Assembly: GCA_035291645.1 (NCBI GenBank)
Contig: DATDRQ010000310.1
Span: 1 to 58,289, forward strand
DNA from: Anaerolineales bacterium
GTDB lineage: Bacteria; Chloroflexota; Anaerolineae; Anaerolineales; UBA4823
DNA length: 58,289 bases
Direction of reading: 5' to 3'
In this document: piece by piece, positions 2,810 to 55,270 of the stretch
Layout of the letters: each line of letters starts with the position of its first letter
Position numbering within the stretch: the stretch's first letter is position 1
Position numbers and translations under genes: made by a program
The notes under the pieces: generated by a model
What the model was told of the DNA's origin: nothing
The model's input: only the letters and a program-made list of their open reading frames with translations
Database searches by the model: none

Positions 2810-4813
2810 TCAAGGTTTTGGCTCCAGGACTTCGATGCTCAGTTCCTTGAACAGCTTCTTGCTCCGGTAGGCTTCCAGGGTTGGGCGAACGACCCGTTTG
2901 ACCCAGGCATCGTTTTCCTCTCCAAATGAGAACTCCTCCCCCTTTATCACGTCCTTCAAGGGATCGGTGATGATCAGCGCGAATCTTCGCTTCGCCAGGT
3001 CGTCATAATAAGATCCCAGGTAAACCTGATTGCCCGCCATCGCCATCTCCATCAGAAATACTTTCTCGTATGGATCGACCAGGCCTACCAGCGGCAGGTT
3101 GTTGAAGGTCAGGAGCTGCCGCTCGGAGATGAACAACACTTCCCCGCCTCGTCCAACGGCCTGATCTACCATGCCTTTGATCTCGTTCAGGGCGGATGAT
3201 ATGACCGGTTTCTCCGGCAGAGGATGATAACCACCGGTCGAGATCGCCATGAGCACCGGGATGACAGACATTGCAGCCAGCACGGAAAGAGATGGCAGGC
3301 GCCCGGTAAACTTGCCTGGTTTTCCCCTCTGGATGCTCTGGAACAGGGCATAACCACCCATGATCAGCAGCAGCACCAGGTAAGCATCCAGGTTGTGCAG
3401 GTTGCTGCCCCCGCCGATCTTCGCGCTGACGACGACCCCCCCGGTGAAGAGGACTACCAGGATACCTGCCAACCCGGCCAACCGATTGAGGTGCAGCCCT
3501 CGCAGTTCTCTCGCCAGCAGGGTTAACATCGGTGCGGAGACCAGCACGGCTGCCGGCAAGATGCCCAGGGGGAAGGTCGGGTTAGGGAAAAGCCGGTACC
3601 ACAACAGGTCGGAAGAGAAGCTGGAGGTGAAGGCCTCTCCCTCCACCCCTGACCATAGGATGTAGACCGCCTGGGTCAGGGAAGCCGCCAGCGTCCCTAC
3701 CAAAATCCAGATCGCCGGCCAGGACAGGTAATTAACTGCCGACCGGAAACGGTTCGACCCAATAGCCGGTTCGAAATCCACCTCAAGAAAGTAGAGCACG
3801 GCTGCCAGCATGCCTGGGACGGGGTACCAGTTCACCCGGCTGATACCCGCCCAGGTGGAGGCAACTATTACCAAAGCCATCGCTTTCCACGGTCGTGTTC
3901 GATCGAATCCCCATACCAACAAAATCGGGATGAGCAACAAGTGGTAATATACGGGACCCTGAAAGAGGAAAAGGAAGGCCATTCCTACGAACAAGATCCC
4001 CACCAGCTCCCGGTCTTCCATACCAACCTTTGTGCGCGGTTCCTCAGCTGCGGGTAGGTTCCTACTCAATCTGTGGTTCAACAAGTAAGCCAGGCCGAAA
4101 GCGGTTGCCAGCCACAGGAGCACTTGCCAGGCGCGGTGGAACCAAAGCGGCAGCTGCGGGATGGTGAAGGGGATCGCCTGCATCAAATAGCGGCTGGGAT
4201 GCAGCGGAGACAGTGGGACAGCTTCTCCGTAAATCCTCTCTGACAAGAACAGCGAAGCGTAGTAGTAACGGCTGGCCTCCGACCAGCTCAGGGTAAACGG
4301 GTAGGTGGACACATCCGGGATGAAAGCGAGCAGCCGGTAACCCACTCCAGCCAGCAGCCAGGTAGCTGAGAGAACGACGATCCAGGACCGCTGGGGCGCA
4401 AACGCTTTAAGGAACACCGACCCGACCAGGCAGGTCATCCAAAAAAGGCTTAGCCGGGGGATAAATTCCTTGAGATATCGACCGGTCGGTCCGAGGATCA
4501 GGAATGAGTATGCCGCGATTATGAGAAGGAAGAAGAACAGGTTAAACCGTCCAAGCTGTTTCAACAGTCCAAGCCCCCGATCGAACCAGCTTTCCAGCCG
4601 CTCCCACCACTCCGTCCAGCTGGCGATCAACAGCGCGACCGGGACTGCCAATGCGGCCAGGCTCGCCAGGAACAGCGCCGTCCAGCGGATCGACTCGAAC
4701 AGATAATCTCGCCGGGAAAGCTCGGCGGCGATCTGCAGGGTTGTACCCCCAAATAGCAGGATGGTGATCCCCAGGATCAGGCGTGACTGGCTGGGGAATT
4801 CACGGCGCGTCAT
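2810..4813 (-). CDS. polytopic membrane protein with a ~190-aa C-terminal soluble domain; putative glycan polymerase or glycosyltransferase (family not recognised)
   Basis: 667 aa, about 480 aa of hydrophobic helices then a soluble tail (..VLFISERQLLTFNNLPLVGLVDPYEK..). ATGA start/stop overlap with the upstream gene at 4810-4813. The function is inferred from context only. Confidence 0.5.
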   Translation of the reverse strand: MTRREFPSQSRLILGITILLFGGTTLQIAAELSRRDYLFESIRWTALFLASLAALAVPVALLIASWTEWWERLESWFDRGLGLLKQLGRFNLFFFLLIIAAYSFLILGPTGRYLKEFIPRLSLFWMTCLVGSVFLKAFAPQRSWIVVLSATWLLAGVGYRLLAFIPDVSTYPFTLSWSEASRYYYASLFLSERIYGEAVPLSPLHPSRYLMQAIPFTIPQLPLWFHRAWQVLLWLATAFGLAYLLNHRLSRNLPAAEEPRTKVGMEDRELVGILFVGMAFLFLFQGPVYYHLLLIPILLVWGFDRTRPWKAMALVIVASTWAGISRVNWYPVPGMLAAVLYFLEVDFEPAIGSNRFRSAVNYLSWPAIWILVGTLAASLTQAVYILWSGVEGEAFTSSFSSDLLWYRLFPNPTFPLGILPAAVLVSAPMLTLLARELRGLHLNRLAGLAGILVVLFTGGVVVSAKIGGGSNLHNLDAYLVLLLIMGGYALFQSIQRGKPGKFTGRLPSLSVLAAMSVIPVLMAISTGGYHPLPEKPVISSALNEIKGMVDQAVGRGGEVLFISERQLLTFNNLPLVGLVDPYEKVFLMEMAMAGNQVYLGSYYDDLAKRRFALIITDPLKDVIKGEEFSFGEENDAWVKRVVRPTLEAYRSKKLFKELSIEVLEPKP

Positions 4814-33186: not shown

Positions 33187-33630
33187 TTGGACATCTACTT
33201 TGCCTGCTCGATCACAGGAGGCCGCCAGGCAGAAGCGGCCTATCAGGTCATCGTCCAGACACTCGAGGCAGCCGGGCATACCGTTCCGACCGCACACCTC
33301 TCGCAACCAGATGCGCTCTCCATGGAAGCAATCGTCGATCCGTATGTTGTCTTTCGGCGTGATATCGAATGGATCAACACTGCCCAGGCATTGATCGCCG
33401 AGGTGAGCACCCCTTCGCATGGGGTCGGATACGAGGTCGCTTACGCGTTGAGCATCGGCAAGCCGGTGCTGTGCTGCTATCTGGACGGCATCCCAGTCTC
33501 GAAGATGATCACCGGCAACACCCACCCACGCCTGCAGGTCCGGGCATACCGGAGCCTGGAGGAGATCCAGCCGCTTGTGAGGCAATTCCTCCAGCAGGTG
33601 GATCTGCTTTATAAGCCAATCATGGACTGA
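33187..33630 (+). CDS. 2'-deoxynucleoside 5'-phosphate N-hydrolase (DNPH1/Rcl-like, nucleoside 2-deoxyribosyltransferase superfamily)
   Basis: TTG start. DIYFACSITGGR.. and ..LIAEVSTPSHGVGYEVAYAL.. align by eye with the DNPH1 blocks YFCGSIRGGR and VVAEVTQPSLGVGYELG. Confidence 0.7.
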   Translation: MDIYFACSITGGRQAEAAYQVIVQTLEAAGHTVPTAHLSQPDALSMEAIVDPYVVFRRDIEWINTAQALIAEVSTPSHGVGYEVAYALSIGKPVLCCYLDGIPVSKMITGNTHPRLQVRAYRSLEEIQPLVRQFLQQVDLLYKPIMD

Positions 33631-33856
33631 GGTGAACAATATCACCTTTAACTTGTGACCTTTGGCATTCAACATCGCTGGCCGAATCCGGTAAACTATA
33701 GGCAGAGCAAAGACGGGACTCAGGACACCTCCTGATGCTCATCGCTGTTTCCTCCTTTGGCGAAAGCCTCCGCCGGGATTTTCCTCACCGCCCCGGCGGA
33801 GGCGGCTTTAACCTTCCCTTACGTTTCCAGGCGATTTTTTCCCTCCCTTTCTTTTT

Positions 33857-46330: not shown

Positions 46331-46972
46331 TTAGACCAGAACCCAGACGTTGAGCGACTTGGGACCGTGCACCCCTAAGGTGACGGTCAGCTCGATGTCG
46401 GCGGTGCGACTCGGCCCGGTGATTAAGATCAAATAACCTTGCCCCTTCGCCTCCGCAAAGACCTGGGCCAGGTCCGGGCGGAACGCAGCCGCCCGCAGGA
46501 GCGCCAGATGGACGCGCGGCAGCAGGGAGACCGGGCGCGGCTTTTCGGGCGACGAGAGCAGGCCGATCGTGCCCGTCTCTGCCAGGGCAAAGTCCGCCTC
46601 AGTCACCCCCAGGTCACAGGAAGCCAGCCGGTGTTTATCTTCGCCCGCTGGAATGATCTCGACCCCCAACCGCTCCAGGTGGTCCGCCACACCCAAATCA
46701 CCCAGCACAGGCGTTTTCCACACAGTAGCCCTCCGGATTTCCTCTGCCTGGACCAGCTCATCCAGGGCTTGGGCCAGCTGTTCCTGGTGAACACGCCTGG
46801 CGTGCCCGGAAAGTTGGTTCAATTCAGACACAAACAGGTCAATCTCTGCCTGGATCTCGAGCGCTGGGCGGGGGGGCAGGACTGCAGGCCGCGGCTCCAC
46901 CGCTTGACCGGGCTGCCTTCCCAATGATTTGCGGATATTCTCGATGACCGGATTCTTGTCCAGAGGGCTCAT
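46331..46972 (-). CDS. lutC: lactate utilisation protein C (LUD domain)
   Basis: ATG 46972 forms an ATGA overlap with the lutB stop (46969-46971). The product MSPLDKNPVIENIRKSLG.. has LUD-domain length. The 386-aa track ORF is a spurious 5' extension inside lutB. Confidence 0.8.
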   Translation of the reverse strand: MSPLDKNPVIENIRKSLGRQPGQAVEPRPAVLPPRPALEIQAEIDLFVSELNQLSGHARRVHQEQLAQALDELVQAEEIRRATVWKTPVLGDLGVADHLERLGVEIIPAGEDKHRLASCDLGVTEADFALAETGTIGLLSSPEKPRPVSLLPRVHLALLRAAAFRPDLAQVFAEAKGQGYLILITGPSRTADIELTVTLGVHGPKSLNVWVLV

Positions 46973-48438
46973 GGCGATCCTCTTGAGTCCCGATCTCCGT
47001 TTCGACGCTGGCGCTGGGCCCACCACTCCCGGAAACCGCCTCGAAAGGCAGGCAAAGGCCTGACACGCGTCCAGCGGTTGACCGGTGGAGGCAGCGCGGG
47101 CAGCCAGCCGTCGCGCCGCAGGGGCGCCATTAGCAATGGCAGCAGGCGCGTGCCCAGGCGGTATAACCAGGGTGTGGAGAGCGCTACCCTGCCCAGGCTG
47201 GCGCTGGCTCTGAGCGGGGCCGGGGCGGCGGGTTTTTCGAACTCGTCCCCCTCGACCACGCGGTGTCTCAAGTGCAGCAGGATCTTGGGAATCGGGATTT
47301 TCACCGGGCAAACGTCCGCACACGCGCCGCACAGCGAGGAGGCGAACGGCAGCTCGCGCGCCGCCTCGACTCCCAGGATTTGCGGGGAAAAGATCGCTCC
47401 GATCGGCCCGGAGATGAACCAGCCGTAAGCGTAGCCGCCGACATGCTTGTAAACCGGGCAGACGTTCAGGCAGCAACCGCAGCGGATGCACTTGAGCGTC
47501 TCGCGGGCGACGGGATCTTGCAGGATGCGGCTGCGCCCGTTGTCCAGCAAGACCAGGTGGAATTGCTTTGCTCCCCCCTCTCCAACGGTACGGCGCGGTC
47601 CTGTGATGAAGGATGTATAGGCAGAAAGCTTCTGACCGGTAGCGCTGCGCGCCAGCAGCTTGAGCAAGACCGTCAGGCTTTCCCAGTCAGGCACGACTTT
47701 ATCGATGCCTACCACGGCGACGTGCAGGTCAGGCAAGGTCGTACACATGCGCCCGTTGCCCTCATTGGATACGATCACCAGCGCGCCGGTCTCGGCTACC
47801 AGGAAATTGGCCCCCGAGATGCCCATCTCTGCTTCCAGGAAGCGCTCGCGCAGTATCCTCCGGGCGATCGCCGCCAATTCTAGTGGGTCCGTAGGCGCGT
47901 CGATGCCGAGCTTCTCCCGGAAAAGTGCAGCGATCTCCTCTTTACGCATGTGGACCGCCGGGACGATGATGTGGGAAGGGCCGGTCCCTGCCAGCTGGAT
48001 GATGAATTCACCCAGGTCGGTCTCATAAGCCTGGATACCGGCTGCTTCTAACGCCTGGTTGAGCCCGATCTCCTCCGTCGCCATCGACTTGACCTTTACC
48101 GCCGTCCGGGCTCCATGCTGCCGGGCAATATCCACCACGATCGCGCTGGCTTCGGCGGCGTCCACGGCCCAATGCACCACGCCGCCGGCTGCGACGACCT
48201 GTTTCTCGACCAGTTCCAGGTACAAGTCCAGATTGAGCAGGGTGTGCAGACGGATCTCGTGCGCCGCCTGGCGTAGCTCTTCCCACTGCGGCATTTCAGC
48301 AATGCGCGCTTCCCGGTTCCCCAGGAAGCGACCGGTCGCCTGCTCAAGCGCGATGGGGATGTTCTTAGGGACGTGGGTCGAGTACTCCCCAAACTCGATG
48401 TAGGCCGGAGCCTGGTGGGAGTGGGTAGATTCGGTCAT
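46969..48438 (-). CDS. lutB: lactate utilisation protein B (4Fe-4S, LUD domain)
   Basis: CIRCGCCLNVCP and CGACADVCP ferredoxin motifs. ATGA overlap with lutA. Confidence 0.88.
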   Translation of the reverse strand: MTESTHSHQAPAYIEFGEYSTHVPKNIPIALEQATGRFLGNREARIAEMPQWEELRQAAHEIRLHTLLNLDLYLELVEKQVVAAGGVVHWAVDAAEASAIVVDIARQHGARTAVKVKSMATEEIGLNQALEAAGIQAYETDLGEFIIQLAGTGPSHIIVPAVHMRKEEIAALFREKLGIDAPTDPLELAAIARRILRERFLEAEMGISGANFLVAETGALVIVSNEGNGRMCTTLPDLHVAVVGIDKVVPDWESLTVLLKLLARSATGQKLSAYTSFITGPRRTVGEGGAKQFHLVLLDNGRSRILQDPVARETLKCIRCGCCLNVCPVYKHVGGYAYGWFISGPIGAIFSPQILGVEAARELPFASSLCGACADVCPVKIPIPKILLHLRHRVVEGDEFEKPAAPAPLRASASLGRVALSTPWLYRLGTRLLPLLMAPLRRDGWLPALPPPVNRWTRVRPLPAFRGGFREWWAQRQRRNGDRDSRGSP

Positions 48439-49169
48439 CGATACCCCCCATTCGAGGCCAGGATATCAATCAGATGGAGCGCCTTGACCTGCGATCCAGC
48501 TTTGCGCAAGCCCCCGCCGATGTTCATCAGGCAACCGGCGTCACAGGCGACCACCGCCTCCGCCCCGGTGGCAAGAATGTTGTTGACCTTGGCTTCCATC
48601 ATCGCCCGGCTGACCTCGGGGTATACCACGCTGAACACACCCCCAAACCCACAGCAGGTCTCCTCTTCCGGGAGAGGGACGATCTCGAGATCGCGCACTT
48701 CGCTCAAGAGCAGCCCGGCTTCCCGGCGCAACCCCAGCCCGCGCAGCAGGTGGCAGGAGGGATGGTAGGTCACCCGGCCGGGGAAACGCGCCCCGACGTC
48801 GGTGACGCGCAGCTGATTGACCAGGAAATCTGTGAACTCGAAGGTCCGCCCGGCCAGGTCTCTGGCGAGTTCATGCTCGCGGGTCCCCTCGGGGAACAGC
48901 TCCGGGTAATGGTGGTGGACCATGTCGACACACGAGCCGGAGGGAGAGACGATCACGGCTTCACTGCGGCCGAAGACCTCCAACCAATTACGCGCCATGG
49001 CGCGCGCCTGGGATTGGAATCCACTGTTATAAAGCGGCTGCCCGCAGCAGGTCTGTTCTGCCGGAAATTCAACCTGCACGTCCAGGCGCTCCAACAGCAA
49101 GACCATCTGTTGCAAGATGTTCGGATAGAACTGTTCGGCCAGGCAGGTAATAAACAACTGTGCTTTCAC
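48435..49169 (-). CDS. lutA: lactate utilisation protein A ((Fe-S)-binding CCG-domain oxidoreductase)
   Basis: Two CCG-type cysteine motifs (..QTCCGQP.., ..ETCCGFGG..). GTG start with GGAGA upstream. Confidence 0.85.
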   Translation of the reverse strand: MKAQLFITCLAEQFYPNILQQMVLLLERLDVQVEFPAEQTCCGQPLYNSGFQSQARAMARNWLEVFGRSEAVIVSPSGSCVDMVHHHYPELFPEGTREHELARDLAGRTFEFTDFLVNQLRVTDVGARFPGRVTYHPSCHLLRGLGLRREAGLLLSEVRDLEIVPLPEEETCCGFGGVFSVVYPEVSRAMMEAKVNNILATGAEAVVACDAGCLMNIGGGLRKAGSQVKALHLIDILASNGGYR

Positions 49170-49222
49170 GGATAGACCAATCTCCAGGCTGGTATTTTAG
49201 CCCACTTCAGTGATTAATTGAG

Positions 49223-49238
49223 AGTGATCATTGTCATT
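49223..49238. promoter_or_regulatory. CRP/FNR-like operator (AGTGA-TCATTG-TCATT) in the divergent lutA-icd region
   Basis: Shares the 13-mer GTGATCATTGTCA with 51693-51708. There are 23 nt to a minus-strand TAAAAT (49199-49194) and 18 nt to the plus-strand TATAAT. Confidence 0.5.
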
Positions 49239-49253
49239 TCGCTGGCGCCCCCA

Positions 49254-49262
49254 TGCTATAAT
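49254..49262 (+). promoter_or_regulatory. extended -10 promoter element of icd (TGcTATAAT)
   Basis: Perfect TGnTATAAT 39 nt upstream of ATG 49301; GAGGAG SD. Confidence 0.5.
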
Positions 49263-49300
49263 TTTCTCGAGACTTTAATACGACGAGGAGACAGGTCAAG

Positions 49301-50602
49301 ATGGGAAATATGATCGCAGCACCGGAGGGTGGAGAGAAGATTATTATCCGGGACGGGCAGCTGCAAGTGCCGGATTTCCCCGTCATCCCTTTTGTCGAGG
49401 GCGATGGGACCGGGCGGGACATCTGGCGGGCCTCCCGGCGTGTCCTGGAGGCCGCCGTGGAGAAAGCCTACCGGGGCAAGCGCAGGATCGCCTGGATGGA
49501 GGTTTACGCCGGCGAGAAGGCTTTCAACTCATCCGGCAGCTGGCTACCCGAGGAAACAGTCGGGGCCTTCCAGGAATATCTGGTCGGGATCAAAGGTCCC
49601 CTGACCACTCCGATCGGGGGCGGGATCCGCTCCCTTAATGTCGCCCTGCGGAAGTTACTTGACCTGTACGTCTGCCAACGGCCGGTCCGCTACTTCCAGG
49701 GAGTTCCATCCCCGGTGAAACATCCGGAATATGTGGACATGGTGGTTTTTCGAGAGAACACCGAGGACATCTACACCGGCATAGAATTCGAACACGGCAC
49801 TCTTGAGAATACCCATTTCAAAGCCTTGCTGCGGGATAATTTTCCCAGCGAATATCAAAAGATCCGTTTCCCGGAGACTTCCGGTATCGGTCTGAAACCC
49901 GTGTCGAAAGAAGGCACTTCCCGTCTGGTGCGGGCGGCGATTCGCTTTGCCCTGGCGAATAAACGCCGCAACGTCACCCTGGTTCACAAAGGGAATATTA
50001 TGAAGTACACAGAGGGCTCCTTCCGCAACTGGGGTTACGAGATCGCCGAGACCGAGTTTGGCGACCAGGTCTATACCTGGAGCCAGTGGGAACGCACCGT
50101 GCAGGCAAAAGGCGAAGCAGCCGCCAACGCCGAGCAAGACGAGGCGTTGAAAGCCGGCAGGCTGCTCATCAAGGACGCCATCGCCGATATCGTCTTCCAG
50201 CAGACTATCACGCGCGCTCGCGAGTTCGACGTCCTGGCGACCATGAACCTGAACGGGGATTACCTGTCGGATGCGCTGGCGGCGCAGGTGGGCGGGATCG
50301 GCATCGCCCCCGGTGGAAACATCAATTACTCCACCGGTCATGCCGTCTTCGAGGCCACCCACGGCACTGCCCCCAAGTATGCCGACAAGGATATGGTCAA
50401 CCCCGGTTCGGTGATCCTCTCCGGTGAGATGATGTTCAATTACATGGGCTGGCCTGAGGCGGCTGGGCTCGTCATTAAAGGCATGGAAGGAGCGATCACA
50501 GCCAAGACGGTGACCTACGACTTCCACCGGCTGATGGACGGGGCGAAACTGCTCAAAACCTCTGAGTTCGGAGACGCCATAATCCAGCATATGGACGATT
50601 GA
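49301..50602 (+). CDS. icd: isocitrate dehydrogenase (NADP), homodimeric prokaryotic type
   Basis: ..[20 protein letters not shown].., ..[21 protein letters not shown].., ..[23 protein letters not shown]... Confidence 0.93.
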
Positions 50603-50624
50603 GCTCATCCTGGATAAATCACAT

Positions 50625-50653
50625 CCGCCCCATAAGTTCGGGGCGGTTTTTTT
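50625..50653 (+). terminator. rho-independent terminator of icd
   Basis: CCGCCCC-ATAAGTTC-GGGGCGG followed by T7. Confidence 0.8.
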
Positions 50654-50790
50654 CGTTTTCTCGAGAACCGCGATCTATTCAGGAAGGCCTGAGAACAAAC
50701 CGTAGTAAAATACTCGAGAACCCCCGAATTACAGGGGCAATTGCAGGTAGTTTTCAGATCTAAACCAATCAAATCCTGTCGGAGGCTAGG

Positions 50791-51201
50791 ATGGACTCTG
50801 TCAAACTAAACCTTACCGGTCTGGCGCGTTACCGGGGGCGCGAAGGGCAGTTTAGCTTCCTGCTTCACCGCCTGACCGGCCTGGGGACCCTGTTATTCCT
50901 GGTTATTCACATCCTGGATACCTCCACGGTTTACTTCTTCCCTTCCCTGTACTCGCATGCCATCGAGATCTACCGCAGCACCCCCATGATGATCGGAGAG
51001 ATCTTCCTGGTTTTTAGCGTCATTTACCACGGCGTGAACGGGGCGCGCATCGCAATTTTCGACCTTTTCTTCCCGAACCTGTGGAACATCGAGACCCAAC
51101 GCAGCACAGCAGTCTGGACCCTGGCAATCGCCATCCTGCTCTGGCTCCCAGCAGCCTTCTTGATGGGCCGCAGCTTGCTCGTTCATAATTTTGGGCTGTA
51201 G
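50791..51201 (+). CDS. sdhC: succinate dehydrogenase cytochrome b subunit, copy 1
   Basis: ..YRGREGQFSFLLHRLTGLGTLLFLVIHI.. and three TM helices. GGAGG SD. Confidence 0.75.
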   Translation: MDSVKLNLTGLARYRGREGQFSFLLHRLTGLGTLLFLVIHILDTSTVYFFPSLYSHAIEIYRSTPMMIGEIFLVFSVIYHGVNGARIAIFDLFFPNLWNIETQRSTAVWTLAIAILLWLPAAFLMGRSLLVHNFGL

Positions 51202-51213
51202 GGGAAAAAAGCG

Positions 51214-51606
51214 ATGTCTGCGACTACGGAGCAAATCTCGAGACAATCGGTTGAGATGCAGGGCAGTTTTGAGAATACCGCCTGGAGGTGGATGCGCTAC
51301 AGTGGTTTGCTGCTCATCCCGCTGGCCTGGATCCACGTTGCCATACAAGACGTACTGGTAGGTGTGCACAGCATAGACCTGGATTACGTCGCCTTTCGCT
51401 GGGCTTCCCTCGGCTGGCGGGTTTATGATTTCGCCCTGTTGGCCTTCGCCTTCGCCCACGGTGTGAACGGCCTGCGCCAGGTGCTCTTCGACTACATCGG
51501 AAATGATAAGGCCCGCCGCCGGCTTTCCTGGTTATTGCTGGCCTTCTGGCTGATCGTCTCGCTGATCGGGGCTGGCGCGATCGTAGGCGGGGTTCGAATG
51601 GAATAG
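51214..51606 (+). CDS. sdhD: succinate dehydrogenase hydrophobic anchor subunit, copy 1
   Basis: 130 aa with three TM helices. W..MRYSGLLLIPLAWIHV and ..AHGVNGLRQV.. Located directly after sdhC. Confidence 0.6.
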   Translation: MSATTEQISRQSVEMQGSFENTAWRWMRYSGLLLIPLAWIHVAIQDVLVGVHSIDLDYVAFRWASLGWRVYDFALLAFAFAHGVNGLRQVLFDYIGNDKARRRLSWLLLAFWLIVSLIGAGAIVGGVRME

Positions 51607-51692
51607 AATTGACTCTGGCACCGGACCACGTGTAAATATTGGAGACCACTGCATCAAAAAGAGCTCCTAACAGGATATCTGAAACCAATTAA

Positions 51693-51708
51693 TGTGATCA
51701 TTGTCACT
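51693..51708. promoter_or_regulatory. CRP/FNR-like operator (TGTGA-TCATTG-TCACT) upstream of the second sdhCD pair
   Basis: 9/10 match to TGTGA-N6-TCACA. It is followed after 23 nt by AATAAT inside TGcAATAAT (51729-51737). Confidence 0.55.
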
Positions 51709-51801
51709 TTTCTTCGGATGGTGAAAACTGCAATAATGAAATAGATAAGGTAAACAGGGAGTCCTGTTGGCGTCCTTCCGCTGCGCTATTAAGGAGTGTA
51801 T

Positions 51802-52191
51802 ATGAGCCAAAACCGGCAAGTCAGCGCCCTGACCGGGTTCAAATACCGGGGTGGAAACCCGATGTGGGCCTGGATGCTCCACCGCATCACCGGTCTGGGT
51901 ATGGTCGTGTTCATCAGCCTGCATATCCTCGCCTCTTTCTTCATGCAACAAACCGGTAGCCAGCTGGCAACCTTCATCAACACCCTGTACGAATCCTGGG
52001 TCCTGCAGATATTTGTCGTCTTTTTCGTCGTCTACCACGCCCTGAACGGCCTGCGCATCGCCATCCTGGACCTGTGGCCTCAGTTTATGGTCTATCAGAG
52101 GCAGGCTTTGTGGTTGCAGTTGTTCATCTTTGCACCGGTCTATGGCCTGACGGTGCTCATCTTAATCCAAAACGCCCTGGCGGGCAGTTGA
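51802..52191 (+). CDS. sdhC: succinate dehydrogenase cytochrome b subunit, copy 2
   Basis: ..YRGGNPMWAWMLHRITGLGMVVFISLHI.. is collinear with copy 1. AAGGAG lies 5 nt upstream of ATG 51802 (the track GTG is at 51796). Confidence 0.7.
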   Translation: MSQNRQVSALTGFKYRGGNPMWAWMLHRITGLGMVVFISLHILASFFMQQTGSQLATFINTLYESWVLQIFVVFFVVYHALNGLRIAILDLWPQFMVYQRQALWLQLFIFAPVYGLTVLILIQNALAGS

Positions 52192-52209: not shown

Positions 52210-52638
52210 ATGAGCTCCAGAACAGTTCAGTCCGGATTTAATTTCGAATACTTCATGTGGATGTTCACCCGCCTCTCCGGCGTTGGGTTGGTGGCGATGG
52301 CGATGATCGGCTTGTTAGGAGCGCTTGTCCTGGGAGCCAGTACTCAGGTCAACCTGCCGACGCTGATGCGCTGGACGTTCTTCCCGAACCCGAACCACGT
52401 CCAAAGCAGCGTCCCGGATGTTGCACTCGGCTGGGCCAACGGTTTTTGGCAGATCATGCAGATCCTGATCGTTTTCTTTGGAGCCACTCATGGTTTCAAC
52501 GGACTGCGGGCAGTCGTCGAGGATTTCGAGGGGAAGTCCGAATGGAAGCCGTTATTGCGAGGATTGATCTTCCTGCTGTGGATCTTCGTGCTGATGATGG
52601 CGCTTTACATTATCCTGGCCCCTGAGGCGCAAGTCTAA
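52210..52638 (+). CDS. sdhD: succinate dehydrogenase hydrophobic anchor subunit, copy 2
   Basis: 142 aa with three TM helices. ..FTRLSGVGLV.. and ..THGFNGLRAV.. parallel copy 1. GGAGG SD. Confidence 0.55.
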   Translation: MSSRTVQSGFNFEYFMWMFTRLSGVGLVAMAMIGLLGALVLGASTQVNLPTLMRWTFFPNPNHVQSSVPDVALGWANGFWQIMQILIVFFGATHGFNGLRAVVEDFEGKSEWKPLLRGLIFLLWIFVLMMALYIILAPEAQV

Positions 52639-52697: not shown

Positions 52698-52759
52698 GTT
52701 ATTAAACAGCATTGCCCCTGGTTCAGAAGAGCCTGCGAAGGAGGTCGAAGGATCGCTGC

Positions 52760-54550
52760 ATGAATGTCCATCAGCATGATGTCATCGTGGTTGGGGCCGG
52801 GGGGGCTGGCTTAATGGCTGCACTTTATGCTTCGAAGAGCGCCAACATTGCCGTGCTCAGCAAGCTGTATCCCATGCGCTCACACACCGGCGCCGCCCAG
52901 GGCGGCGTCGGAGCCGCGCTCGGCAACCTCGAAGAGGATCACCCGGAGTGGCACACCTATGACAGCGTCAAAGGCAGCGACTACCTCGGCGATCAGGATG
53001 CGATCGAGTTCATGTGTTTCGAAGCCGTCCAGGCTGTCTACGAACTGGAGCACATGGGCTTACCCTTCTCGCGCACTCCGGATGGGCGCATCGCCCAGCG
53101 ACCCTTCGGAGGACACACCAACAACATCACCGGAAAACCGGTCCGGCGGGCCTGCTACGCGGCTGACCGCACCGGGCACATGATCCTGCAAACACTCTAC
53201 CAGCAGTGTATCAAGAACCGAGTGAGTTTCTTCGACGAATTTCAGGTGCTTGACCTGCTGCTCGTCAACGGGCAGACAGCCGGGGTGGTCGCGATCCAGC
53301 TTTCTACCGGTGAGCTGCATGTTTTTCAATCCAAGGCGGTCATTTTCGCTACCGGCGGTCACGGGCGCATCTGGGAGATCACCTCCAATGCCTATGCTTA
53401 TTCCGGGGATGGGATCGCCATCACGTTACGCCGGGGGATCCCGGCTGAAGATATGGAGTTCTTCCAGTTCCACCCTACCGGCATATTCAAGCTCGGCATC
53501 CTGATCACCGAGGGCGTGCGCGGCGAAGGCGGGGTCCTGGTCAATGACCAGGGTGATCGCTTCATGGAGAAATACGCCCCCAACGTTAAAGACCTGGCCT
53601 CACGCGACGTGATCAGCCGCGCCATGCACCTCGAGATGCAGGCCGGCCGCGGCATCAACGGCAAGCGCTACCTGTACCTGGATGTCCGCCCTGAGACGGT
53701 GAATAAGTATGCCGCCCTGGATGGGCGTAAGCACCCGGACGGTTCACCCTACGTCGTCACCGCCAAGGAGATCCTTTCGAAACTGCCGGACATCGTCGAC
53801 TTCTGCCGGACATACCTGGGCGTCGATCCCGTCTCCCAACCCATGCCGGTCCAGCCGACCGCCCATTATGCCATGGGTGGGATCCCGACCAATAAGTTCG
53901 GGGAGGTCGTGATCGATGAGCACAACACGGTACTCCCAGGCCTGTACGCCGCTGGCGAGGTCGCCTGTGTCTCGGTGCACGGGGCCAACCGCCTCGGCAC
54001 GAACTCGCTGCTCGACCTGCTGGTATTCGGCAAGCATTCCGGACTGCAGGCTGCCGGGTACGTAGCGGGCGCTTCCCTGCAGAAGCTGCCCTCGGATGCC
54101 ACCGATTTCTCCCGCTCCCAGCTGGATGCTTTACTCACTTCAAAGGGAAAAGAACGCCCGAACGAGATCGCCGAAGAAATGAAGAAGACGATGAACGATC
54201 ACGTGGGTGTATTTCGGACAGAGGAGGGCATGCAGACCGCCCTCGAATGCCTGCGTGACCTCAAAGAACGCTTCAAACAAGTGCGTGTGGACGACCATGG
54301 CAAGATCTTCAACACCGACCTGCTAAATGCCTGGGAGCTGGGCAACCTGATCGACCTGGCAGAGGTAACCACCGCAGCGGCGCTGGCCCGCAAGGAAAGC
54401 CGGGGTGCGCACGCCCGTGAGGATTATCCGAAGAGGGACGACGCCAACTGGACCAAGCACAGCCTGGTCTGGGCCAGGGGTGATGGGCTGGAACTGCGCT
54501 ATAAACCCGTCGTTATCACCCATTATCAGCCTAAAGAACGAGTTTACTAG
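52760..54550 (+). CDS. sdhA: succinate dehydrogenase flavoprotein subunit
   Basis: [17 protein letters not shown], ..[10 protein letters not shown].., ..FHPTG.., ..RGEGG... ATG 52760 with AAGGAGG upstream. Confidence 0.93.
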
Positions 54551-54565
54551 ACAGGTTGATTGTAT

Positions 54566-55270
54566 ATGCAAGTAACCTTACGCATCCTTCGCTTCAATCC
54601 TGAAAAGGATGAGAAACCACATTTTGAGAAATATGAGGTCGAAGCAGATCCAACCGATCGCGTCCTTGACCTGTTGGAGCATGTCAAGGGACGGATCGAT
54701 GGGACGCTTTCATTTCGCCGCTCCTGCGCCCATGGGGTGTGCGGTTCCGATGCGATGCGCGTCAACGGACGCAACTACCTGGCCTGCAAGGTCCTGGTTA
54801 AAGACTTAAACTCTTCGAAGATAACCGTCGAACCGATGCTGGGTCTGCGGGTGCTTAAGGACCTGATCGTGGATATGGAGCCGTTCTTCGAGCACTACCG
54901 CTCGGTGTTGCCGTACTTCATTAACGATGAACCCCCGCCCAACCAGGAACGGCTGCAAAGCCCGGAAGAGCGCGAGCGCTTCGACGACACTACCAAATGT
55001 ATCCTGTGCGCCGCCTGCACCACCTCCTGCCCATCCTTTTGGGCGAATGAACGCTACGTCGGGCCGGCCGCCATCGTCACCGCCCACCGCTTTATCTTCG
55101 ACAGCCGGGATACCGCCGCCGCCGAGCGGTTGAATATCCTCAACGACCAGTTCGGAGTTTATCGCTGCCATACCATCTTCAACTGTACCGAGGCCTGCCC
55201 GCGCGATATCCAGGTGACCAAGGCGATCGGTGAGGTGAAGAAAGCCATCGCCACCGGCCGGCTGGATTAG
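54566..55270 (+). CDS. sdhB: succinate dehydrogenase iron-sulfur subunit
   Basis: 2Fe-2S CAHGVCGSDAM..C, 4Fe-4S CILCAACTTSCP and 3Fe-4S CHTIFNCTEACP. ATG 54566 (the track TTG is at 54560). Confidence 0.93.
   Translation: MQVTLRILRFNPEKDEKPHFEKYEVEADPTDRVLDLLEHVKGRIDGTLSFRRSCAHGVCGSDAMRVNGRNYLACKVLVKDLNSSKITVEPMLGLRVLKDLIVDMEPFFEHYRSVLPYFINDEPPPNQERLQSPEERERFDDTTKCILCAACTTSCPSFWANERYVGPAAIVTAHRFIFDSRDTAAAERLNILNDQFGVYRCHTIFNCTEACPRDIQVTKAIGEVKKAIATGRLD

Follow-up and report, generated by a model that had tools for sequence, protein, structure and literature searches.

Gene organisation of the lutABC-icd-sdh region

The window, by which we mean the whole stretch of 58,289 nucleotides that was analysed (positions 1 to 58,289 of contig DATDRQ010000310.1, assembly GCA_035291645.1), derives from a member of the Anaerolineales (Chloroflexota) whose assembly amounts to 3,744,252 bases (3.74 Mb) in 402 contigs, with a G+C content of 59.5% and a completeness of 91%. 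The subject of this study is a pair of 16-mers with a common core that are located in intergenic DNA of this window, the first between the divergent lutABC operon and icd, and the second ahead of the latter of two sdhCD gene pairs that specify membrane anchors of succinate dehydrogenase (SDH). The lutABC operon (46331-49169, minus strand) is composed of lutA (48435-49169; Pfam CCG), lutB (46969-48438; LUD_dom and Fer4) and lutC (ending at 46331; LUD_dom), while the isocitrate dehydrogenase gene icd (49301-50602; Iso_dh) is encoded on the plus strand. A terminator scan identified a strong GC-rich hairpin at 50625-50646, directly downstream of icd, with a T-run behind it, which suggests that icd is probably transcribed as a single gene, apart from sdhC1 and sdhD1 (50791-51606). 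Further downstream, and on the plus strand, lie sdhC2 (51796-52191) and sdhD2 (52210-52638), with two Sdh_cyt matches, followed by sdhA (52712-54550; FAD_binding_2 and Succ_DH_flav_C) and sdhB (54560-55270; Fer2_3 and Fer4).

Sequence and uniqueness of the two sites

Site 1 (AGTGATCATTGTCATT, 49223-49238) is located in the spacer between lutA and icd, and site 2 (TGTGATCATTGTCACT, 51693-51708) in the spacer between sdhD1 and sdhC2, upstream of the latter gene. A first-pass annotation had described an identical 13-nt core in both and had likened them to the dyad TGTGA-N6-TCACA at 7 (site 1) and 9 (site 2) of 10 positions, and a check of the sequence established that the core (GTGATCATTGTCA), the coordinates and both fits are correct. 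The core is present in two copies in the window and in two copies in the whole assembly, as compared to an expectation of 0.079 copies on both strands under a first-order Markov model (P = 0.003 for at least two copies), and the probability of finding a second copy at most 2.5 kb from the first is approximately 0.001. The inner spacer TCATTG is the same in both sites, which may reflect a copying event or selection towards the same optimum, and the flanks beyond the 16-mers are unrelated. That the pair represents a chance likeness, or a small local duplication without function, is an explanation which we regard as extremely improbable: the shared TCATTG spacer and the lack of site 1 in close relatives would fit a recent copy, but neither the uniqueness statistics and unrelated flanks nor the conservation in distant relatives (of site 2 and of sites at icd), the enrichment across genomes and the fixed spacing described below are to be expected from it.

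The ATTAAT that had been noted near each site is indeed present at both, being located 4 nt upstream of site 1 and overlapping the first base of site 2; owing to this unequal offset, and as it is not conserved in relatives, it probably lies outside the signal and was rejected as a component of the sites. An RNA element was likewise set aside, as no Rfam family matched either the lutA/icd or the sdhD1/sdhC2 spacer and as the orientation of the dyad relative to icd flips between genomes. No copy of the dyad was found in the spacer preceding sdhC1 (50603-50790), and sdhC1D1 on the one hand and sdhC2D2 with sdhAB on the other thus appear to be differently controlled.

A conserved dyad in the Anaerolineales

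Relatives retrieved by means of Icd were Anaerolineales with 64-77% identity, and a further 24 relatives were picked by taxonomy. The motif is a 14-bp dyad, GTGAY-N4-RTCAC, of which GTGACA-NN-TGTCAC is the commonest perfect form. The pattern GTGAYNNWTGTCAY produced 83 matches in 10 genomes, as compared to 11 for the reversed control, and 196 matches in 25 relatives drawn from GTDB, as compared to 16 for the control, with a single genome (G031) showing no excess of the motif.

Dyads of the same kind, albeit in the opposite orientation, precede icd at loci L031, L037, L046 and L062, where the 16-mer is followed after exactly 19 nt by TGnTATAAT, and in genomes G003, G004, G007, G010 and G015 a 16-mer upstream of icd is separated by 22 nt from TATAAT; degenerate half-sites were observed at the icd genes of L044 and L051. 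Among the 24 relatives picked by taxonomy, icd carries a full site in G015 (at 22 nt) and G012 (at 27 nt) and a half-site in G025 and G023, while the icd promoter of the remaining genomes is without a site. As icd possesses its own dyad at 22 nt in other lineages, it is a recurrent member of the regulon. In L037, L044 and L046, equivalents of site 2 were found ahead of the sdhC2 orthologue. Judged by these comparisons, the motif is a conserved signal of the Anaerolineales, and the earlier proposal that both sites are operators of one regulator draws support from the conservation at icd and sdhC2 orthologues and from the enrichment across 35 related genomes.

Position of the dyad relative to the -10 hexamer

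Three putative -10 elements accompany the two sites. For lutA this is TAAAAT on the minus strand (GGCTAAAAT, 49194-49199), with GGCTAAAAT being conserved upstream of lutA in L309 and L310; for icd it is the extended element TGCTATAAT on the plus strand (49254-49262), whose TGnTATAAT form is kept in nearly all relatives; and for sdhC2 it is the extended element TGCAATAAT, also on the plus strand (51729-51737), which contains AATAAT, 23 nt past site 2. The distances that had been reported for these elements hold, namely 23 nt from site 1 to the lutA TAAAAT, 18 nt from site 1 to the icd TATAAT, and 23 nt from site 2 to AATAAT. No -35/-10 pair was found in either window spacer, the lutA and sdhC2 promoters being without a -35 hexamer. 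The TTGTCA arm of the motif was considered as a -35 and rejected, since it would require a 24-nt spacer and since the dyad occurs in both orientations; furthermore, no likeness to a -35 was seen in the first bases past the site.

For 59 non-redundant sites, the spacing was determined as the number of nucleotides between the 16-mer and good -10-like hexamers to its left or right. A sharp peak was obtained at 22 nt (11 sites), flanked by smaller counts at 21 nt (2) and 23 nt (3), as compared to a mean of 0.75 sites per bin at other distances (P of approximately 5e-10). The cleanest promoters of the genome itself conform to this peak, with 23 nt at lutA, sdhC2 and the ArsR-family gene of contig C88, and 22 nt at C74, and spacing of the 22-23-nt type is also seen in genomes devoid of CRP and in genomes devoid of Rex. 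If transcription is assumed to start 7 nt past the -10, the dyad would be centred at approximately -42 to -43. Class II sites of CRP and FNR in Escherichia coli occupy the same position to within one or two bp, and the class-II-like placement relative to -10 hexamers that had been suggested for the two window sites is supported by the sharp peak.

Proposed mode of action

We consider it likely that a single dimeric factor, conserved across the Anaerolineales, has both 16-mers as its operators and is placed 22-23 bp from the -10. The element is of an ordinary kind, that is, a transcription-factor operator with its regulon. The factor would bind the 14-bp dyad in either orientation, 22-23 bp upstream of a -10 that is often of the extended TGn type, in promoters devoid of a recognisable -35. 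The centre of the dyad would then lie near -42, the position from which CRP, FNR, LuxR and other class II activators touch RNA polymerase. Owing to this fixed spacing to promoters without a -35, the factor is read, with moderate confidence, as an activator that contacts RNA polymerase, and would most likely switch on sdhC2-sdhD2-sdhA-sdhB and lutABC.

Site 1 most likely serves lutABC, as its spacing is right for lutA (23 nt) and not for icd (18 nt); with respect to icd the gap is 4-5 bp too short, the site overlapping the -35 zone, where it may dampen expression or do nothing. The coupling of lactate oxidation to the tricarboxylic acid (TCA) cycle through site 1, as envisaged in the first-pass annotation, is weakened accordingly: the spacing speaks for the lutA half of the proposal and against the icd half, and the site is absent from the closest relatives with an icd-lutA pair. 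The closest family members have no dyad at icd, and site 2 is, as judged from the relatives, the conserved site, while site 1 is a recent and lineage-specific one.

Several observations weigh against the reading of the sites as activator operators of one conserved factor. Site 1 is absent from L309, L310 and L313; three metagenomic relatives whose LutA is 72-77% identical are without the dyad, yet retain TGCTATAAT at icd, GGCTAAAAT at lutA and the divergent arrangement of the two genes. Not all sdhC2 sites of the relatives have a clear -10 at 22 nt, and the -10 assignments and the centre near -42 were themselves read from sequence. A repressor which blocks upstream contacts of RNA polymerase could also require a fixed position. 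The gene calls employed were crude, so that the labels intergenic and coding carry some error, and neither autoregulation nor a comparison of family distributions tied any regulator to the motif.

Genome-wide targets

A position weight matrix (PWM) was built from 11 sites and used to scan the genome at a threshold score of at least 18. Nine matches were obtained, of which site 1 is the best in the genome (score 25.5), site 2 scoring 24.2. Eight of the nine are intergenic, as compared to an intergenic fraction of 15.5% for the genome as a whole (P = 2.6e-6).

Beyond the window, the targets in this genome comprise regulators, namely three of the ArsR family (C57:9084-9482, C88:311-661 and C306:4585-4932) and one of the LacI family (C237), and cytochromes, namely a multihaem one whose gene adjoins an XRE-cupin regulator (C283) and an NrfH-like one (C59), together with a radical-SAM gene (C74) and a gene for a protein of the metallo-beta-lactamase fold (C53). 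In addition, GTGATTGATCTCAC (GTGA-N6-TCAC) is located between a divergent pair encoding an FTR1-type iron permease and a DtxR-family protein (C131:3371-5122), and the same FTR1/DtxR pair in G012 (L238) harbours the perfect dyad GTGACATTTGTCAC. Many of these targets recur in relatives: multihaem cytochromes in G007 and G016, with an ActA-like cytochrome in G002; ArsR genes in G003, G011 and G013; and a LacI regulator in G022. G016 and G022 further share a GltD-like oxidoreductase as a target, G022 has FeoA in addition, and cytochrome bd is a target in G021. Enolase and an iron-type alcohol dehydrogenase are targets in Thermanaerothrix solaris, a cultured relative whose strain 4228-RoL bears 15 copies of the motif. 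From this content, in which respiration, iron-rich enzymes and metal homeostasis are represented, the signal to which the factor responds is probably respiratory, redox or metal status.

Elsewhere in the window, two adjacent dyad-like sequences, GTGAACAATATCAC (33632-33645) and TGTGACCTTTGGCATT (33654-33669), were observed in the spacer that follows a gene ending at 33630.

Candidate regulators

The first-pass annotation had suggested a single regulator of the CRP/FNR family for both sites, and while the notion of one regulator for the two sites is supported, its assignment to that family is not, as no such gene is present in the assembly. Searches with PF13545 and PF00027 coupled with a helix-pattern scan revealed no protein with a CRP-type helix-turn-helix (HTH) in this 91% complete assembly. 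The seven PF13545 matches represent DtxR, GntR (two), SorC, ArsR, MarR-like and ROK proteins, the nine cNMP-domain matches are all without an HTH, and the RE..R recognition helix is found in no frame of the assembly. A search with the CRP protein of G002 retrieved nothing from the genome beyond a cNMP domain and a small, unrelated HTH. Proteins that might represent a hidden CRP were rejected for the same reason, none having a CRP HTH, these being the DUF134-like protein of C308 (the best weak HTH match), the single-domain cNMP proteins of C97 (next to a NifU-like gene and ferritin) and C6 (next to hypABF), and a cNMP protein of C352 with a coiled coil.

A similar situation was encountered in relatives, as no CRP/FNR gene was found in G016 (95% complete, 5 contigs), G033 (98% complete), G017, G025 or G010, all of which keep the motif; the best matches of G016 and G033 in the CRP search were ArsR-type and GntR-type proteins, and G016 and the genome under study keep the spacing of the motif despite having no CRP/FNR gene. 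The regulator is not a canonical CRP/FNR protein. There is a small probability that a class II activator of this family is nonetheless at work, encoded in the approximately 9% of the genome that is missing from the assembly. Most relatives encode between 1 and 11 CRP/FNR proteins, a perfect GTGACATTTGTCAC stands at the start of one CRP-type gene of G002, whose product has the recognition helix RETVSR, the core fits TGTGA-N6-TCACA, and the spacing is that of E. coli class II sites to within 1-2 bp; on the other hand, such an explanation has to contend with the absence of the gene from all of the above motif-bearing genomes, and with the distribution of the CRP/FNR proteins in patchy groups that include no universal orthologue. 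Moreover, the motif precedes only 2 of the 28 CRP-family genes of the relatives. GTGA-N6-TCAC is common to both sites and the family-wide motif, but the T and A at the outer ends of TGTGA and TCACA are not conserved.

Rex, a repressor that senses the NADH/NAD+ ratio, is encoded in the genome (C77:2411-3028), in 30 of 34 relatives and in every genome with a full icd site. Its gene is preceded by a box, TTGTG-N8-CACAA, which is conserved in relatives and located 15 nt from an extended -10, the copy in the present genome being TTGTGGGGGTTTGCACAA. Boxes of this form were detected at C77:3093-3110, C396:3139-3156, C238:5419-5436, C269:225-242 and C77:51795-51812, and precede rex, a Rieske iron-sulfur gene, gapA and the genes for formate-tetrahydrofolate ligase and a proton pyrophosphatase. 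In the boxes the TT/AA ends are kept and the inner positions vary, the opposite of what is seen in the present motif, and TTGTG-N8-CACAA is probably the true Rex operator of the clade. At the 14 fixed positions of the 18-bp Rex operator TTGTGAA-N4-TTCACAA site 1 agrees at 7 and site 2 at 9, with flanks of A/T...T in place of TT...AA.

The regulator is probably not Rex. For the sites to be Rex operators, the matches in Rex-less relatives would have to be owed to CRP-type proteins that recognise the same half-sites, and to this explanation we likewise attach little likelihood. In its favour, besides the distribution of the gene, is the GTG-N8-CAC spacing, which equals that of the Rex box TTGTGAA-N4-TTCACAA of Staphylococcus aureus and Streptomyces (PMC2883068), and some Thermanaerothrix sites, such as that before eno, read TTGTGA-N6-TCACAA. 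The window sites, however, are without the TT/AA flanks, their inner bases being Y and R in place of the A and T of Rex boxes, and rex, gapA and the Rieske gene carry the separate box with variable inner bases. The distributions also part company, as Rex-less G021 (90% complete, 10 contigs) and G022 contain 10 and 17 motif matches, respectively, as compared to 0 for the control, and keep the 21-23-nt spacing and the common targets, while G031 shows the opposite combination, with Rex present and the motif excess absent. Finally, a fixed spacing to promoters without a -35 would be atypical for a repressor.

A response regulator of the NarL/DosR type that is encoded next to multihaem cytochrome clusters and has a membrane histidine kinase as its partner might recognise the dyad with its GAC-N4-GTC core and activate from approximately -42 as LuxR-type proteins do, and we regard this candidate as a lead of low probability. 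The 6-2-6 layout of the dyad is common in the NarL family. In three genomes, regulators of one such orthologous group are encoded no more than approximately 300 nt from copies of the motif and from genes for multihaem cytochromes; in G007 two sites are involved, one of which lies 22 nt from a -10 that faces the regulator gene, while in G016 the site comes after the regulator gene. In the genome under study a kinase-regulator pair in C130 is associated with the variant GTTGACATATGTCATG, and a paralogous pair is encoded in C283, on the contig that bears a canonical site. The palindrome of DevR (DosR), a NarL-family regulator of Mycobacterium tuberculosis with the half-site G4G5G6A7C8T9, has the same GAC-N4-GTC core (PMC3177182). 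Adjacency may, though, simply reflect control of cytochromes by these regulators, of which approximately 20 NarL-type paralogues are encoded in the genome. DevR, moreover, requires its boxes in tandem, at least two of them (PMC3177182); the window promoters have one site each, and paired sites were seen only in G007 and G022.

Two observations were made at these loci. In L190 (G007:C19:64000-74000) two dyads 104 nt apart (3881-3998) are located between a large multihaem cytochrome gene and a NarL-type regulator gene, with a third dyad inside the next large gene. The paralogous kinase/NarL-type pairs at C130:6626-8834 and C283:64-2179 adjoin cytochrome c maturation genes and multihaem cytochrome clusters, the regulators themselves being located at C130:6626-7351 and C283:1529-2179. 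At the N-terminus of the kinases is a conserved membrane region of several helices, in which the motif FG(L/F)LHG..EW occurs.

The occurrence of the dyad upstream of the ArsR-family genes in C57, C88 and C306, as well as in G003, G011 and G013, raises the alternative of an autoregulatory ArsR/SmtB operator, with a 6-2-6 layout like that of TGAACA-NN-TGTTCA, the metabolic genes being additional targets. This is very unlikely in our view, as two unrelated types of ArsR would need one common operator, as the C88 type is absent from the motif-bearing genomes G001, G002, G007 and G009, and as a site was present at only 1 of the 9 orthologues first examined. In the ArsR promoters the dyad takes up the usual activator-like position at 22-23 nt, and not one over the -10, and the ArsR genes consequently look like targets.

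Other routes to the regulator were equally unproductive. Autoregulation was followed as a guide and abandoned, with the motif lying before 2 of 28 CRP-family genes and 1 of 9 ArsR genes and with rex carrying another box, and phyletic matching failed in that neither the CRP/FNR nor the Rex distribution tracks the motif. PocR-type and PadR regulators located by Thermanaerothrix sites have no homologue in the genome under study, and boxes of the Fur, LexA, LacI and GntR types were set aside by their consensus, having another spacing or a CG centre.

Significance

A search of the literature found no described regulon for the Anaerolineales. It is possible, and we put it forward tentatively, that the motif belongs to a global respiratory, redox or metal regulator of this order which is neither CRP/FNR nor Rex, perhaps NarL/DosR-like, and which has converged on a CRP-like dyad and a class II position, thereby coordinating SDH, Icd, lactate oxidation, multihaem cytochromes and regulators of metal homeostasis. 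Members of the Anaerolineales are abundant in sediments, digesters and wastewater, and few have been cultured; for such organisms the motif provides a concrete and conserved handle on the control of the respiratory chain and TCA cycle. As a target of the factor, the second pair of SDH membrane anchors would constitute a separately switched module. The finding of a CRP-like class II dyad in a genome without a CRP/FNR gene also cautions against naming regulators by motif alone.

Comparison with known systems

The consensus dyads of CRP and FNR are TGTGA-N6-TCACA and TTGAT-N4-ATCAA, respectively. One close likeness is to the class II sites of these proteins in E. coli, which share with the present sites a single 14-16-bp GTGA-N6-TCAC dyad in either orientation, a fixed place upstream of promoters that lack a -35 and often possess a TGn extended -10, and targets in respiration and central carbon metabolism. 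An example is the galP1 promoter of E. coli, where CRP is centred at -41.5 and the -10 is of the extended type. They differ in that the inner positions (GTGAY...RTCAC), and not the outer T and A, are conserved here, in that the gap to the -10 is 22-23 nt as compared to 21 for E. coli CRP/FNR class II sites, and in that no gene of the family is encoded in the genome or in two near-complete motif-bearing relatives.

Rex operators resemble the sites in their GTG-N8-CAC spacing and in their redox-related targets, and Rex is encoded here, but the window sites diverge from them in the lack of TT/AA flanks, in the Y/R inner bases and in an activator-like placement. With the boxes of DevR, whose half-site is GGGACT (PMC3177182), the sites have in common the palindrome core of GAC, an A/T-rich N4 and GTC and, as proposed here, activation from upstream of the promoter and a regulon of the hypoxia/redox type, and NarL-type regulators adjoin some of the sites here. 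They are unlike the DevR boxes at positions 2 and 13 (GTGAC here as compared to GGGAC), and in being single.

In terms of its targets, the regulon is also reminiscent of that of GlxR, a global regulator of Corynebacterium glutamicum which mostly represses sdh. GlxR is a CRP-family protein, of which none is encoded here, and acts via TGTGA-N6-TCACA on a regulon that is reported to comprise sdhCAB and genes for respiration and the utilisation of lactate, such that sdh, lactate and respiratory targets are common to both.

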